A stretch of DNA of 62,898 bases, the filler included, from Bipalium vagum (Eukaryota): assembly GCA_037834085.1 (NCBI GenBank). It is 3 parts of 3 records of this genome, joined end to end, with 100 filler letters (N's around TTAATTAATTAA, not from the genome) between each part and the next. Parts side by side here need not be neighbours in the genome. Positions count along the whole stretch, not along the records: positions 38,323 to 62,898 come from JBBMKC010199830.1; 2 more parts are not named here. One strand, 5' to 3'. Positions 48,900-62,800 of this stretch are shown piece by piece; positions within the stretch are counted from its first letter, which is position 1; each line of letters starts with the position of its first letter. The notes beneath the pieces were generated by a model that was not told the origin of the DNA, did not search any database, and worked only from the letters and a program-made list of their open reading frames with translations. The translations under genes and the position numbers were made by a program.

Positions 48900-49210
48900 A
48901 CGGGTGGTCAATAAAGAATGATAAATTGTCTAAATACATTATTTTTAAACTAAAAAAAATTAAATTTGAATTATTAATTGATTTAATTTATGCCAAGGTT
49001 TTTAATATCTTGCAAAATAAACATACGTTATTTTTAGCAATATTTTCTTTTAGATAATGACGTATGAGAGCTGTGTAAGAAATTTGATAAAAACCCATTG
49101 TGAAAATGGGAAAACACCGGAAGAAATTTATGAAGCTGTAGAAAAAACGGTACTAAAGTCCACTATTTATAGATGGACTAAACTAATAAAAGAGGGAAAA
49201 TCAAATATCA
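48900..49210 (+). mobile_element. maT/DD37D-like 5' fragment
   Basis: Terminus cgggtggtcaataaag and ORF MTYESCVRNLIKTHCENGKTPEEIYE...KSTIYRWTK. Family call rests on the N-terminus only. Confidence 0.5.
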
Positions 49211-49890
49211 ATTCATTGATATTTGGGTTGCAATTTTTTCTGGTTGATTCTCATTCTGGAAAGTCACTCTTTTTTCATAACTGTGCTTTCAAACTTAATT
49301 CATTTCTCGTCCGCCGTTTTGAAGCTGAAAAAAAGTTCCTTTTTATGGCGGTTTACGTGTATGCAGTATATATCAAAGACATCAGAGATTTGTACGAATC
49401 ACTAAGGTTATAGGGCATACTTTAACTGGAATCCTCAAAATTCCAAATTGATTTCAAGTACCGTTGAACTGCTGCCATAGGAATATTTGTCCTTTATGAA
49501 ATTTCCTCAATTGTTTGAGAAGCATTTTCTTCAAAAAAATTTCGCAATTCATTCTTATCAAATTGAACTGAATGATCAATTCTCTCGACATTTTGAAGGT
49601 CAAAATTTCGTCTCCAAAATCTGTTAAACTATTGTTGATAGTTGATGTCCTTGCGTTATGACTACAACTACATTGTAATAGTATACAAAGTTAAATGTGG
49701 TCCTCTTCAATTTTACATCTATTATCTGACATTTTTCCATTTTTTATTAAATTTTAAATTCAGCAAAATAATGAATTATAGATTTTATAGGTAACTAAAA
49801 AAACTACATATTAGTATTATTTATATATAAAGTTAGTATATCCTGATAATTTTTCATTTTCTGTTATAAGCGAAATTATTTAGGAGTACC
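49210..49890 (-). mobile_element. Decayed mariner 5' part
   Basis: Minus-strand remnants NFDLQNVER, EENASQTIEEIS and AAVQRYLKSI. Confidence 0.5.
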
Positions 49891-54340: not shown

Positions 54341-57300
54341 ATTTCATTTTGTTTTCTGTAAAACTTTCTTTTATAAAGCCATCGACATTAACAATTAAAA
54401 TAAAATATTTTAATTGAGAAAGCAGTTTTATTAATTACTTTATTTTTCTAAGTTAATATTTTATAAATCTTCTCTAAATTCTATTTTCAGGTCTTCTTAA
54501 ATCAACAATATTTGTGAAATTCTAAACAGAAAGAACTAACTTCACAAAATCAATAATATTCTTTTACTTAGATCGATTTAATTTTATATTTTAATCAGAA
54601 TTTTATTTTCATTTTCCGATATCTTATTACGACTTATAATTATATTTTTCAATTAAAGGTGAATTTAATATGCTTATATAAGACATTTGATATCTTCTTT
54701 ACCAGCGAAGTCCACTGAACAAAAGCTTATTAATTAAAATAATTTATAATTATTATTTTAAAAGAAATCTATTATTTGGTGAAAGCAATTAAATGGAGAT
54801 ATTATTAAATTAAAAATATCCATTTTCTTTAAAACATTTATTTTCCAAACAATTATCTGATAACGTGGAAGATAATGTATCGATTAATAATGTGAATCTA
54901 AAATAGAATCAGCCAGGGAAAGAATTTTTTAGATTTTTTTCGAACCGAAATTTATTTATTATATTTAATAACCGGATAGTTTTTTTCTTTTAAAAACTTT
55001 ATAAAATATTTAAAAATCTATTAATAATATTTTTAGACAATTTTATTAAAATTATTTTTAAATTAATAACTTAAAATATCAGAAAATAATTTTTTATTAA
55101 AGGACATTTATAAACAACATATTTTTTATTTTTATTAAAATTGAAATTTTTTATTATAGAAACAAATATATAGTTTGTTCAGGAATATCATAAATAATTT
55201 CTTTTTAAAATGAATTTGTATAAGAATTGTGAATAAAATGAAATAATGTCATTATGTAACTATTAATATAAAATATTATTAAAGAATAAAAAAGAAAAAG
55301 ATCAAATAAATATTATAATTTTCTTATTTTCATATACATTTTAATCTTGAATTCTTAACTAAGCTGGTCGTTAGGTGTGATCTGAATTTTTTATGATAAA
55401 AATTGATTTTACTAATATGCATTATATAGTCATTTTATTATTATTAATATATAAAAATATATATTTCAATATCAAATATTCTTTCTCAGTATAAAAATGA
55501 AATTAAATCGCAAAAATTTTCGTGTTATAATTTATTGTGATTTCCGACGGGAATTAAGTATCTCAATAAAATTGAATAAATCAGCTTAATTCAACTTTTC
55601 CTGATGAAATCCAGAACAAATTCATCATATATCACATGGTTCAAAGAATTTAATTGTAGTCATGGTTCGATAGGCATGAATTTACAGAAAGACGTCAAAA
55701 ATCAGATGTGCAAACATTGATGCCACCTAACAATCATTAAAGTTTGATAGTCATGTGACTTACCGTGAGATTCAGGCATCATTTGGATTTAATAAGAGTA
55801 GCATATATTGGTTTTAAAAACAATAAAGCAGTTTATATATAATTTGTCGTTTTAAAAATTTTTATCTTTTTGAAATACACAAATGAATGCAAATGTCTTG
55901 ACTAAAGTATGTTTAGTTTTTCATTTATCATATTATTCCGTAAAATTAATTTGAAAACTGTTAACAAATCTTTATCTATTATCTTACAAAGATTCGCAAA
56001 TAGTTATATATATATAATCTTTTAGATACTCTCATTGTTTTGGTAAGCATTATTGGTAATTAAATCAATTGTTAAACCCTATATATGTCCCTTTCATCAC
56101 TGCTTAGTCCTTTTATAATATCAAATAACTGACAATCAAGACTTAGATTTTATGTGAAAGATAGTAATATTAGTTATAATGTGTTGATAATTCTTTTATT
56201 TTTATTTTCTCATTACCATTTCCATCTTCATAAGTAGCTGCAAAAGAATATAGGATCATTTTGGATTAATAAAAGTTATAGAAATTCATAATATCAATTG
56301 GAATTGATAAAATTCGTGTTTGATATTTTTTACCTTAGAAAACTTTTCATTTAAGTATCACATGCAAAGTAACAACATATTAATTATGGAAATATCCCTG
56401 AATAAAAAAATTTCGGATGATTTTTATTCGAATAATGTTTTATCATTTATCATATTTTCTCACACGTTCCTTTTAATCCTATGGAATATTTTCATTTATT
56501 TCGCATCTTTTGGGTTATTTATTCTATTAATTAAAACTATTCAGTAAAATAGTAATAAAGATGATTATAAATTCTGGAAATTAATTTTTCTCTAACTTTT
56601 CTTTTCCATTTATTCCTGTTAGTCAGAATTAATAATATTTATAATTAAAATCTATTTATTCAATATTTAAACTCAAAAATCTTCAAGAAATGTTGTATAA
56701 TCTATTTTAAATATAAATATCTTGAAAGTTATAAATAATTAATAATGACATTTATTACTATTTGAATTGAAATAAATTTCCAAAATTGTAGTTTACCACT
56801 ATCCATATTGTCTAAATATTTTTTACATTATATATTTAAATATATATATCAAATTTGAAATATGTTACGCTAGTTAATTAATAATAATGGGGTTTAATGA
56901 TATATAAGCAATGGAACTATGTATAAAAATTAAGATTAAAACCTCTAACAAAATTAATAAATATTTGAAGTTAGGTAATAAAATCAGTTTAAAATAAAAT
57001 TTAAAACGTACTTATTTTAAATTATTATAAGTCATTAAATCAATAATATTACAATAATATAGATTTAAAAATCTCATAATTATAATTCAATTTGCTAATT
57101 CAAATTAGTACCATTCCTTGTCTTTGGACCTGAATAACTCTCTCTCTCTAAATTTATTTCTTATTATTTTAAAACTATTTTTTAAATATTATCAGAAAAT
57201 CTTTAAATTTGAATCAAGATTTAATGTTATATTTTTTTATTTTTATTATCAATATGATTTTAAATATAAAATATATATAAACCAATTTTGATCACTTTAA

Positions 57301-58240
57301 AAAGATAAAAAATGCAAATTAAGGAAACCATAAATTTTTTCCTATTAACTTACAAGTTCCCTTTATTTTATCTTCAAAATGGTTAGGTTTATTTTTAAAA
57401 AATCTACTCTATGATTTTATTTCGTACAGAAACATAATTATCGGGTATCCAATCTCTTTAAACAAGGTTAAAATTATACTGCAGCAGTTACAAATTAAGA
57501 ATAAATGACAAGTGTTTCTATTGGGAATTTTTATTAAAATTTCTGGAGAATTAATATAAAATTTAGTAAATGAAAAAATGCATTGAACTTACATTTCCAT
57601 TTATATTACTTAATTAATTATAATATTTAAAAGAAATTATTATTTTTTGTAATATCTTTTTGAAATTTTTAAGTATCACTTTTTAAGTATCACTCCGTTA
57701 AAATAATTTTTATTTAAATATAAGTAATTATATTTCATTTTTAGAATTTTTTTGAGAACTAATCTGAAAATTAACACGAGGTATAAATAAAGATTAATCT
57801 GCCAATCTCAACCTCAAGTTTTGGAGAATTTATGACGGTGATAATATTGTTTGAATAATGACTAATATTTTTCGTTATTAAGTTTAATTCAGTTTTCGGT
57901 TTTCTGTCTTCTCATATATATTAATATATACATATATATTATTAATATATTATTACCTTAATATATACGTATGGTAATATATTTCATTGTTATAAAATAT
58001 AAGTAATATATATATATATATAAAGTTTTCATTGTTAATAAGAATGAAAAGGCTGTCAAGTGGAATTTGATTTCCTTGTCAAAACATAAATACATCAATT
58101 AAACGTTGATATTTCTTTCTCGCTCTGAACTTTGATATATTTTAAAATATTTTAAAATAATAAAAAAATGATTCTTTTAGCGAAACCGTGTTGATATTAA
58201 AATCAGTATATATTAATCTAGAGAGCAATTATTTTTTTAT

Positions 58241-58433
58241 TTTTCAAGTAAACGCTTTAAAAAACAATTTTGAAAACACAAAATTTTATTGATAATATTG
58301 ACTTGATACATGTTTAAATCTTTTTCATTCACTGAAGAAGATCGGAATGAAAAGATCGAAACATGTATCAAGTCAATATTATCAATAAAATTTTGTGTAT
58401 TCAAAAATGTTTTTTAAAGCGTTTACTTGAAAA
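58241..58433. repeat. Foldback with ~90-bp inverted arms and a 14-nt spacer (Penelope-type inverted pseudo-LTR)
   Basis: 58241-58330 is the reverse complement of 58345-58433 with about five differences. AATAAA at 58384 follows the ribozyme core. Confidence 0.9.
58332..58368 (+). ncRNA. Minimal Penelope-type (type I) hammerhead ribozyme core
   Basis: CUGAAGA (58332-58338), A, stem II GAUC/GAUC around a 10-nt loop, GAAA (58358-58361), palindromic stem III ACAUGU and GUA cleavage triplet (cut after 58367). Stem I has only 1 bp. Confidence 0.7.
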
Positions 58434-58906
58434 AAAAAATGATATATTAAAATATTTAAAATTCTAAAAAATAAAAACACATTTTAAATTCTTAAGCAAT
58501 TTCAAGATAAAATTCCGCGAGTAAATCTAATCAGAAAATAATAAATAAATTAATAATCATATAACGGTTTGTAGGTGTTTCGTTCTTTTGAAGTATTTTT
58601 AGCAAAAGATAATTATAATCTATAAAAAAGCTTTCTTTTGGGAGATCTCAATTTTCCAATTGATTGCAATAAGTTTTATTTAGATAACATAAAATTATAA
58701 CAGATGGGTAGACAAAATATATTTTTAGAATATTTTAGCATTTTTAACATAAACACTTTTATTCATAAAATAACATGGTTTAATATTTTTATAATAAATT
58801 TTTCCAGTTCAAATTAGTACAACAAAATTATTATTACACTTAGTACAATGATGATATCAAAACATTAATATTAATATTGATTAATAAAATTCGTTCCTAA
58901 TAATGT

Positions 58907-59860
58907 ATGAGGTAAGGCTTAAAAGTACATAGACTTTACCAGAAATAATGAAGTCAACTCAACAAAGTATTCTTTAACAATACGTATACTTTTATAGGTC
59001 TCATTTCTTGATATAATTGTCGTTCTGTAGACCATTAAATTGAATTCTATATCATAGAAACTTTAATCCTTCTCCATGAGGTATTTCGTTATCCTTAATA
59101 TTATCCTTTGAAATAAACTTGTCCTCACATATGTTTCTTCAGATGATCGAAAATCCAAAAATTTCTTAATGCAAGGTCTGTACTGTATGGATTAATTCAT
59201 CTGCATAAACTCAGCCTTTGTTGATATGTCTGATGTTTTCATGGATGTGTAAATAGGAGCGTTATAATGGAGCAAAACAAGCTCCTGACTGCGTGACTTG
59301 CATAGGATATTTTGGATTTCAACTACGAGATCACTGTAGTAATCCGAATTTAAGATTTTTCAGTAAAACCGGGCTTCAAGATGACATCTCTTTCTCAAAA
59401 TACTTTCAACATAGTACACACACATAGTACACACATGGCTTCTCATTTTCGAAAACCTACTCTCTTTACTCTCTTTTAGGATGAGGAAGGTAGAGACTCA
59501 ATAGCGTCTAGTCTGTAATTATTATATTCAATTAACAATTTGGTTCGACTTCATTTTTGTCACAGGCCATTTTTACTCTAGTCATCATCTCAGTTGTTAA
59601 AAATCTTGATACAATCATGTTACAAACCTTTCGTATTCCAATTTTCTTTAATTTATCACAATCTTTTATATTTTTTTATAATTTCTTCACTAATTTCAAC
59701 AGCTCTTCCACTTTTGGTTGCTTCGAAAACCCTTGGTCGACCAGATAAAAATTCTTTGATCAAGTCATACATGGTCGTCTGAGATGGAGCTTCTTCACCG
59801 TAAAATTCTTAAAGCTGATTAATAATTTCCTTCTTGCAACATCCATGGAGAAATAAAAAA
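58907..59860 (-). mobile_element. Decayed mariner (DD34D type)
   Basis: Minus strand GEEAPSQTTMYDLIKEF, IGIRKVCNMIVSRFLT, LNSDYYSDL, LLHYNAPIY and PYSTDLA. Terminus ta|tgaggtaaggcttaaaagt. Confidence 0.75.
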
Positions 59861-62800
59861 CAGATCACACTGCAAAATTCTACATTTTTAATATTTTTTG
59901 AATTAATCTAATCTAGTGCAAGCAAAAATTAGAATATTTAAACTAATCGTATATTTTATATTTATATATGAGTATTATTTTACGTGCAAAAGGTTTATTT
60001 AGGTATCTTCAATATTTCTGGTAGATGCTTTCTGTTTTGTTTTACTACATATGTTTTAACAAGATTAGATTAGTAGACATTTAAACAAAAAATTCTAGTT
60101 AAGTTTAGAAAAAAAATATTGTTTATATTCTTAAATTTTTAAGGAGTTCATATGATTTAATTAGCAAAATATAACAGTTTACTTCCTATTTTATGGCCAA
60201 ACATAAGTTTCTACAAGACTTTTAATTAATATTATTAATGAAAGGTATATTTTATTGATGAGCTAAATAATTTTTTAAAATTATTATTATCTGTATTATA
60301 TATATTATTTTAAAATTTATTTTTATATTTCATACTTATATTTACTATTGATTCTTGTGCCATTCTATTATTTATTTTTAATTATTCATAGAAAAATGTA
60401 AATTAAACATTTGCCTTTGGTATTTACAATTTTCAATGAATTTAGAATATTTAGAATCTCTTATAATATTTAGTTTCGTGAAAGTCCTATCAAAGTAGTT
60501 TTTTTTCAAAAATGTAATACTCTAACTAAGAAATCCTGCTCGAGTGTGGTGGTATGGTCAGTAAAAGCACAGGCAATAATATGTCAATAATCCAATAATC
60601 ATTTCAGAAACATTCTAAATTTTATAGGAAAAGAAATCGTTCTCTTAAAAATTAAGAAAAAATAAAGGATCAATGATCCTTTGAATAATACCTTTTAAAA
60701 AAGATTTATGAAAAGAAAAGTTAATTATAAATCAATCTTCAATAAATGAAATTTAGTAATAATTATTTATAATTGTGAGAAATAATGACGTAACAAAATT
60801 AATTATGTTATAAATTTTAATAATAATAATTATGCAACATTTTTAAATAAATATAATTAATTTAAAAATAATTATTTACATATTATGATTTATTTGTTTT
60901 AATAATATATTTTAAAATGTGTATTATAAATTATCAGTTAATTTTTGTTCTTTATTCATTATTGTTTATTTAATTAATAATTAATAATTTAATTATTTAA
61001 AAAATGATTAATGTATGGTATGTAAACCTGTTCCGTCTATAACTTTCGATTAAAATTATTATAATGTTTTCTATACCATAATTCAAAGATTTACAAAAAT
61101 AACATTTGATGGTTATTTTAATATGCTTAAAAATATAATCATTGATTTTAATTTCGCAAATAATTTACAAATAATAGATAAGAAAATGTTTTATTTACAG
61201 AGATTGATTGGATTTTTTAAAATTTAAACGATAGAAAAAATTTATAAATAAGTTAAACTTTTTTCTTATAAAAAAAATTAAATGATAAATAATTGATAAG
61301 ATTTCCTGGGAGAAATATAATATAATTTTAATAAAACTTTTTATTAATAAAATTAAATTTTAGACTAACATTAAAAATTAGTTTAAAAAAATATATTGAA
61401 AATTAACAAGTAGAATATTATATTTGTTAATATTTTATACTAACCAAGTTGTACTAATTAGACTTATTCACTTTTAGCACGGCTAAGTTCAGTAATAACC
61501 CTATGGGTAAATAAGTCACGCAATAAGACAATGCGATCTATTACTCCCCAATAAATAATATTGTCTTATTGTATGATACGTCAAAAGTACACTCACAAAT
61601 GTCACGAACTCAATCATAACATAGTCAACATCTACAAAATTGTATTCCACTCGTCTATATCCACAATAACATCAATAGATTTCTTCTCGCTCGTAACGCT
61701 TATCTATCGTGAAAATGTCAATATAAATTAGAAAAATTAACAACAATATTATTATCATAACCATTTCAAAATTCAACATATTTATTAATCCAACTTCATA
61801 CAAATATAGAAAGGAAGAAATGTTGTAGTTACCGATGATTTGATAAATTAATTAAATTACACAAATGTTAATTAGTAATAATTGTAACATTTTTAATCAT
61901 AGTATATATTCCAATTTTTAATGAAAACCAACATATTTATAACGATAAATAAATAAATATCTTGAAATTTTGATTTCACAAATTCGTTCCAAATAAATTT
62001 TCATTATTTTTAGCAATTCTTTTTGAAAAACCTCCAGCTAATATTATAATTGATAATGTATAATATTTTGTTAACATTATACATTACACAGTTTTTGCTT
62101 ATTTTAAAGCTGGTTTTTACGATAATTTGTTTTAATTATGTTAATTTTATTTTATTTCTTTACCGTTATAAATTGAATTTATTAACGATAGTTTGAAAAT
62201 GTTAAAATTTCAAAATAAAATTTTCTTTCTTAATAAAGACTTGATCAAAGATAAAGGAAACAAATAGAAATAGAATAAGTTTAATTTATTAATTAAAAAG
62301 TGAAAATTTTATTTTCCAATTTATATCTATTTTGCTATATCAATATTTATGTCAATACACATTTTTAATTATAAATATAAGACTAAAAATTGTGTCATTT
62401 TTTCAGAATCTCGGAATAAATTATTCAGAAGAATTTAATCTTATATTAATTAATAAAATCTCACCATTATTATGGGAAAAAATATTTATGTGACAAAATA
62501 ATATTTACGACTTGAAATAATATTACCAGATGCTAAACATTCGTACCAGATAAATAAGAGAATTATTTATTTATCCATTTATGATAAGGGCTATTTTATT
62601 ATATTTAATTTAACTGACAAATTTTTAAAGAAAATAATTGTGGTTTTATTATGCTCTTGAGAGAAATAATTTCTAATTTAACATGTAGTTTGATCTGAAA
62701 CAATTATCAAGTAATTATTAACCAAAGAGAATAATTTTAATAATAATAATTTATTTATTTAATATCAAAATCGACACTTTCTGTCATTGGTAATATATAT

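Follow-up and report, generated by a model that had tools for sequence, protein, structure and literature searches.

Penelope-like elements (PLEs) are known to leave inverted copies at their insertion sites. An inverted 5'-truncated copy together with a one-sided tail is typical for PLEs (PMC8557442). The Adineta elements Pen2a_Av and Pen2_Av have an inverted pseudo-LTR (pLTR), a tail, a target-site duplication (TSD) of 9-10 bp and a pLTR that includes the first codons (PMC3846280). The minimal hammerhead ribozymes (min-HHRs) of metazoan PLEs have an extra nucleotide and a palindromic stem III, and pairs on opposite strands are found 100-700 bp apart (PMC4209133). In flies, siRNAs are produced from inverted Penelope copies (PMC3681739). 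Each of these features is, as such, already published: the inverted pLTR, the one-sided tail, the minimal hammerhead and the production of siRNAs from inverted copies of Penelope.

The locus considered here is found in a window of 62,898 nt from Bipalium vagum (assembly GCA_037834085.1), the window being the whole stretch of DNA that was analysed. A previous reading of this DNA (the sequence-only reading) had described a hammerhead core with an inverted copy directly upstream, and had interpreted it as a non-autonomous Penelope insertion whose transcript has mutually exclusive folds. The hairpin is part of an abundant EN+ Penelope-like element family. It is highly probable that the locus is a single decayed and very short insertion of an EN+ PLE, in which two 5'-truncated hammerhead-bearing repeats were placed head to head, likely in one event from both cut target strands, and in which the ribozyme is predicted to be inactive. 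The features of the locus are listed in Table 1.

The layout resembles that of Pen2a_Av and Pen2_Av (PMC3846280) and that given in PMC8557442: the pLTRs are inverted head to head, the tail is on one arm, a TSD of ~10 bp is probable, the first codons are in the pLTR and the target is TA-rich. The 30-40-nt tail found at one end of EN+ PLEs is present here on the left arm only. Unlike the Adineta elements, both copies in the window are cut to ~120 nt and have no body, and the joint, which is inside the hammerhead, lacks a perfect palindrome. As in the metazoan min-HHRs (PMC4209133), the window copy has a CUGANGA/GAAA/UH core, an extra nucleotide at 9/10.1, a G10.1-C11.1 pair and a palindromic stem III, and stem I is short in the family; unlike in those ribozymes, stem I in the window is broken, stem II is shortened and sequestered, and one core survives. 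Poseidon PAc of Anolis (PMC11167929) is similar in that the ORF starts within the hammerhead (likely also the case here), two 3' ends are separated by the tail and the target is AT-rich, but in PAc the start of the ORF is at stem II and the likely ATG here is in stem III, and the window element is known from sequence alone. Non-LTR retrozymes (bioRxiv 10.64898/2026.07.22.740005) are likewise non-coding PLE-derived sequences with a type I hammerhead, but they are tandem arrays in head-to-tail order that hold two or more complete hammerheads, whereas the window has one inverted pair with one damaged ribozyme. Assignment to the non-LTR retrozymes was rejected, as the window contains one core and no tandem units with complete hammerheads. 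No direct repeat matching the tandem retrozyme layout was found in positions 56000-60500.

Table 1. Features of the foldback locus, in positions of the window. Family positions are counted with hammerhead C3 as 0.
Feature	Position	Strand	Remark
Probable left copy of 10-bp target-site duplication (ATATTAAAAT)	58194..58203	+	longest exact shared word
PLE tail, family ~+114 to +131 from hammerhead C3, this arm only	58210..58229	-	
Inverted 5'-truncated pLTR copy, family +12 to +131, tail included; without the CTGANGA half, GAAA damaged	58210..58331	-	
Head-to-head joint; ATTCA vs family ATTGA (4/5 microhomology)	58327..58331	+	breaks stem I
5'-truncated pLTR copy in forward orientation, tailless, family -5 to +113	58327..58443	+	
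Core of a minimal type I hammerhead with GUA as cleavage triplet, ACATGT as palindromic stem III and an additional nt between 9 and 10.1	58332..58367	+	
Likely 5' end of the PLE ORF (start codon, first ~27 codons); contains AATAAA; frameshifted by a 2-nt deletion also in the left arm	58363..58443	+	
Probable right copy of 10-bp target-site duplication	58444..58453	+	exact 10-nt repeat

Parent family in the genome

An exact degenerate pattern of the core has 144 matches in the genome (control: 0), and sister families with a different stem II account for 482 further pattern matches (control: 0). When the genome was searched with the DNA of the window element, 797 candidates were obtained, of which the 40 scored match mostly from the hammerhead rightwards. 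Stem I is 4 bp in 79 of 96 family cores and stem II is 5 bp in 92 of the 96; for many of these, the core pattern used to select them already prescribes most of stem II. The sister PLE families, of which there are at least two, are abundant (L158-L187, L052, L055); their hammerheads have a GAACT/AGTTC stem II, a stem I of 2-3 bp and the same ATG-in-stem-III frame.

Reverse transcriptase (RT) fragments are located upstream of the hammerhead in two of the first 30 loci, and an RT search of the genome gave 154 matches from 1700 candidates. Three of the 30 RT loci that were fetched (L039, L040 and L056) are continuous from the RT through the endonuclease region and an AT-rich stretch of ~230 nt to the same hammerhead. 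The PLE pLTR origin proposed in the sequence-only reading is borne out by the exact core copies and by these three loci. The RT has a YVDD-type motif and matches Pfam RVT_1 with E-values of 1.2e-4 and 4e-6, both under the curated cut-off; the window copy itself has no RT ORF. In a sister copy (L045), the conserved domain PF01541 (GIY-YIG) scores 27.6 bits, which exceeds the Pfam cut-off. Among endonuclease pieces of the same family, GIY-YIG matches were found in L131 (E-value: 0.00097, below cut-off) and L139 (E-value: 0.019), and the pieces of L056 and L039 gave no match. In the atlas, the neighbours are eukaryotic clusters, 18-19% of whose members carry GIY-YIG. Inspected by eye for the clade features given in PMC8557442, the RT-EN linker has no Cys motif, and the EN has C-x2-C and two His residues.

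All of the RT-linked copies that were translated are broken by stops or frameshifts, and a PDB search with the RT piece returned weak retron/DRT2 RT matches only. Among the fetched copies of this fragmented assembly, none has a tail that continues into an ORF body, and there is no shared downstream sequence. In L045, the minus strand of positions 431-907 has an open frame of 158 aa that lies upstream of an RT fragment of a sister family, in the opposite orientation, and has weak Pfam matches only.

Ribozyme core, reading frame and predicted folding

The window core reads CTGAAGA-A-GATC-loop-GATC-GAAA-C-AT-GTA and is the sole match in the window to a loose hammerhead pattern, which is weak alone (13 of 100 shuffles also give a match). 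A covariance model made from 35 other loci, with the window copy left out, scores this core at 47.4 bits (E-value: 7.6e-11), the next best score being 15.3 bits. Both the complete core that had been claimed and its description as a minimal hammerhead with a palindromic stem III are upheld by these results and by the features named above. An Rfam scan of the window gave no hammerhead match, and neither did scans of seven out of seven other family loci with the exact core, so the blank result on the window is uninformative. A microRNA precursor was rejected, as the best Rfam score (40 bits against a gathering threshold of 83) came from generic hairpin matches.

In the 35-row alignment, 93% of the cells pair, compared to 23-49% with slid partners. 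The third pair of stem II is U-A in 16 and A-U in 19 across the sister families, a compensatory change. In a covariation control, the number of pairs changed on both sides was 2, against 2.2 in shuffles, the 35 rows representing few subfamilies. In the 32 rows that were not chosen by the core pattern, three ribozyme positions are variable at the subfamily level: two bases of loop II and H17.

The window copy departs from this family in both flanking stems. Its stem I consists of one pair, a C-C mismatch and two pairs, short of the 4-5 bp expected, and its stem II has 4 bp compared to the family's 5 bp, a T-to-G change having removed the fifth pair. The 5' strand of stem I was thought to have been replaced by sequence complementary to loop II; such sequence is there, but the strand is damaged (TTCA compared to TTGA in the family) rather than wholly replaced. 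Similarly, the CG-to-AA change to which the loss of the core from the inverted copy was attributed is present, but the CTGANGA half is missing by truncation regardless. The ribozyme of the window copy is predicted to be inactive.

The AATAAA noted after the core is present, but it is likely to be within an N-terminal reading frame. Over 24 codons, the frame that begins at the ATG in stem III has no stop in 45 of 78 family copies (other frames: 4/78 and 2/78) and is open in 12 of 24 sister copies (other frames: 5 and 0), and the peptide that it encodes is recognisably similar in four subfamilies. By likeness to Pen2a_Av (PMC3846280) and PAc (PMC11167929), the ATG inside the palindromic stem III is likely to be the start of the ORF. 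The AATAAA would then be in coding sequence, likely among the first codons of the element. Its identification as a polyadenylation signal is not supported, because the subfamilies keep open the frame in which it lies; a dual role, both coding and as a polyadenylation signal, is conceivable.

The foldback has a predicted minimum free energy of -113.2 kcal/mol (z: -22.9), and none of 200 shuffles was equally stable. The hammerhead fold is predicted to be 38.5 kcal/mol above the full hairpin, with a stem II probability of ~1e-6. Forcing the hammerhead (stem II formed, stem I paired where its bases allow, core open) costs 10.3 kcal/mol when the sequence upstream of the core is cut back to 10 nt and 6.2 kcal/mol when it is cut back to 6 nt, and in the fragment 58326-58385, from which the left arm is almost wholly removed, the probability of stem I is still <0.001. 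In four native family copies, the forced cost is 0-1.6 kcal/mol, with probabilities of 0.91-1.0 for stem II and of 0-0.59 per pair for stem I. The proposal that the two folds act as a switch is not borne out. Given the 38.5 kcal/mol gap and a stem I that is broken at the joint, a two-state RNA switch was rejected on predicted energy, and the locus is predicted to be a dead ribozyme within a hairpin.

Structure and origin of the foldback

An inverted-repeat search identified arms of 95 nt (58230-58324 and 58350-58444) with 93% identity. In a gapped alignment of 58230-58331 and 58344-58444, 93 of 102 columns match, with perfect runs of 40 and 27 nt, so the long duplex with an inverted copy upstream of the hammerhead stands as first described. 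Because the left arm carries the PLE tail, the element reaches left to ~58210, and the insertion spans 58210-58443, more than was previously reported. Each arm holds sequence that is absent from the other: the tail in the left arm and the 5' half of the hammerhead core in the right.

The 10-nt repeat that flanks both arms is probably a target-site duplication. In random windows, a flanking repeat of this length occurred in 16 and 59 of 5000 cases (0.3-1.2%), and the repeat sits 6 nt off the end of the tail; no explanation was found for these 6 nt. The sequence ATACTG is present 3' of the element end in four copies (window 58204-58209, L064, L022 and L124), where it may belong to the tail or reflect a preferred target. 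The left flank of the insertion is single-copy. The right flank (58440-58471) resembles an AT-rich stretch slightly to the left of the insertion in 30 of 35 columns, with none of ~2900 control windows as high, and the insertion site may be inside an older degenerate tandem duplication. Elsewhere in the window, a frame of 119 aa at 49054-49413 (starting CENGKTPEEIY...KSTIYRW) has no Pfam match, and a similar piece adjoins a family copy in L008; its start looks like a helix-turn-helix of the Tc1/mariner type. A search of sequencing runs listed one run with 0.88 of the words, possibly the source sample and hence not independent, and no RNA runs, which has no bearing on expression.

It is scarcely credible that the foldback is an assembly or amplification chimera. 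The assembly is fragmented into 272,664 contigs, and a contig end near the 5' end kept 45 of 95 copies from being evaluated; however, the two arms disagree at 9 of 102 columns and each has its own sequence, and the insertion has a single-copy left flank and a probable target duplication.

Inversions were surveyed in 144 core copies, of which 100 were listed, 95 examined and 50 evaluable; the 45 left out have contig ends <100 nt from the 5' end, and inversions are probably undercounted as a result. In 9 of the 50 evaluable copies, the 5' end carries an inverted family piece of 40 nt or more, which agrees with the suggestion that inverted 5' truncation is an insertion footprint. Five of the nine are pLTR foldbacks (the window copy, L072, L106, L119 and L126) and four are inverted body pieces (L068, L079, L124 and, weakly, L150); the inverted piece of L074 is 29 nt and under the 40-nt threshold. 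Three further foldbacks (L004, L062 and L064) came from other searches. The joints of all eight pLTR foldbacks, the window copy included, are different. Seven of the eight have a single tailed arm, L072 has none and no foldback has two. As all eight joints differ, the hairpin does not represent a self-amplifying family, and the idea of a separate non-autonomous family was not sustained. A MITE-like foldback family was similarly rejected: a tight palindromic pattern matches the window locus alone, and a 30-mer containing the variant positions is unique. A looser palindromic pattern matches five places, two of which are family foldbacks with other joints. In L068, L079, L029, L016 and L050, non-overlapping body segments are inverted next to forward copies, an arrangement that, unlike the overlapping pLTR foldbacks, resembles the twin-priming inversions of LINE-1. 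L037 (1090-1210 and 1501-1935) has a long form of the layout, in which an inverted pLTR with a hammerhead is upstream of a 5'-truncated RT copy.

The arms of the window copy are more like each other than like other copies. Across family +18 to +98, they are 95% alike, compared to 88% and 84% to the nearest other copies. They share six rare changes (five events, including the 2-nt frameshifting deletion), compared to four that are arm-specific; the other seven foldbacks share 0-4. Four of the shared changes cluster in 11 nt within the 40-bp perfect duplex, and the 30-mer that holds these four has no other match in the assembly within 2 mismatches. The shared changes, which weigh against the reading preferred below, reflect either an unsampled diverged source copy or later homogenisation of the arms.

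The second of these readings keeps the PLE origin and has the arms homogenised after insertion, by conversion or template switching, possibly because they are transcribed as an siRNA hairpin that silences the family. We consider it unlikely. The excess of shared rare changes, their clustering, a haplotype unique in the assembly and the likeness of the arms speak for it, as does the mapping of siRNAs to inverted Penelope regions in flies (PMC3681739). However, a diverged source copy explains the same pattern, the arms of L064, L072 and L119 also sharing 2-4 rare changes, and no host gene or promoter context was found, the 26 ORFs of the stretch having given one sub-threshold Pfam match. Somewhat less probable still is a host hairpin-RNA gene, with arms kept alike by conversion, siRNAs against the start-codon region of the PLE family and a ribozyme disabled so that the hairpin stays whole.

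The changes common to both arms would also be accounted for if an old single pLTR copy had been made into a hairpin later by a template switch in DNA replication, with no retrotransposition. This is very improbable, as the right arm reaches only to +113, where family copies naturally end, and the left arm ends in the tail; moreover, the same asymmetry of the arms is seen in seven of eight foldbacks, and the probable target duplication brackets both arms.

A single insertion primed from both target strands is the reading that we prefer. PAc cuts and extends both target strands, and two RT start sites bound its tail (PMC11167929). Self-priming on an antisense template has been put forward as an alternative source of inverted copies (PMC3846280). 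Snap-back copying of one arm is unlikely here, because each arm has sequence missing from the other and such copying could not produce the tail together with the 5' half of the core.

The proposed sequence of events builds on the family membership, the RT and GIY-YIG-type sequences upstream in other copies, the one-arm tail and the differing joints that were observed, and adds priming steps that we infer, that of two-strand priming from in vitro data on another PLE (PAc). One target strand would prime at the tail site (~+131 to +146) and the other at a shorter site (~+96 to +113). The two cDNAs would grow toward each other and join at an imperfect 5-nt microhomology, leaving a 10-bp target duplication behind. 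Priming from both strands would give outward-facing 3' ends, a head-to-head joint and one tailed arm. In the window copy, the joint would have fallen by chance between stem I and the core, so that a read-through RNA of the + strand would fold as a hairpin and never as a ribozyme. The one-arm tail (seven of eight foldbacks) and the shared changes fit priming of both strands at two start sites from the RNA of one source copy.

The hairpin is thus ordinary debris, another instance of an insertion layout already described for PLEs. The stump is of modest value as a natural trace of the mechanism by which such insertions form, and the family to which it belongs shows the likely start codon of its ORF within the palindromic stem III across four subfamilies.
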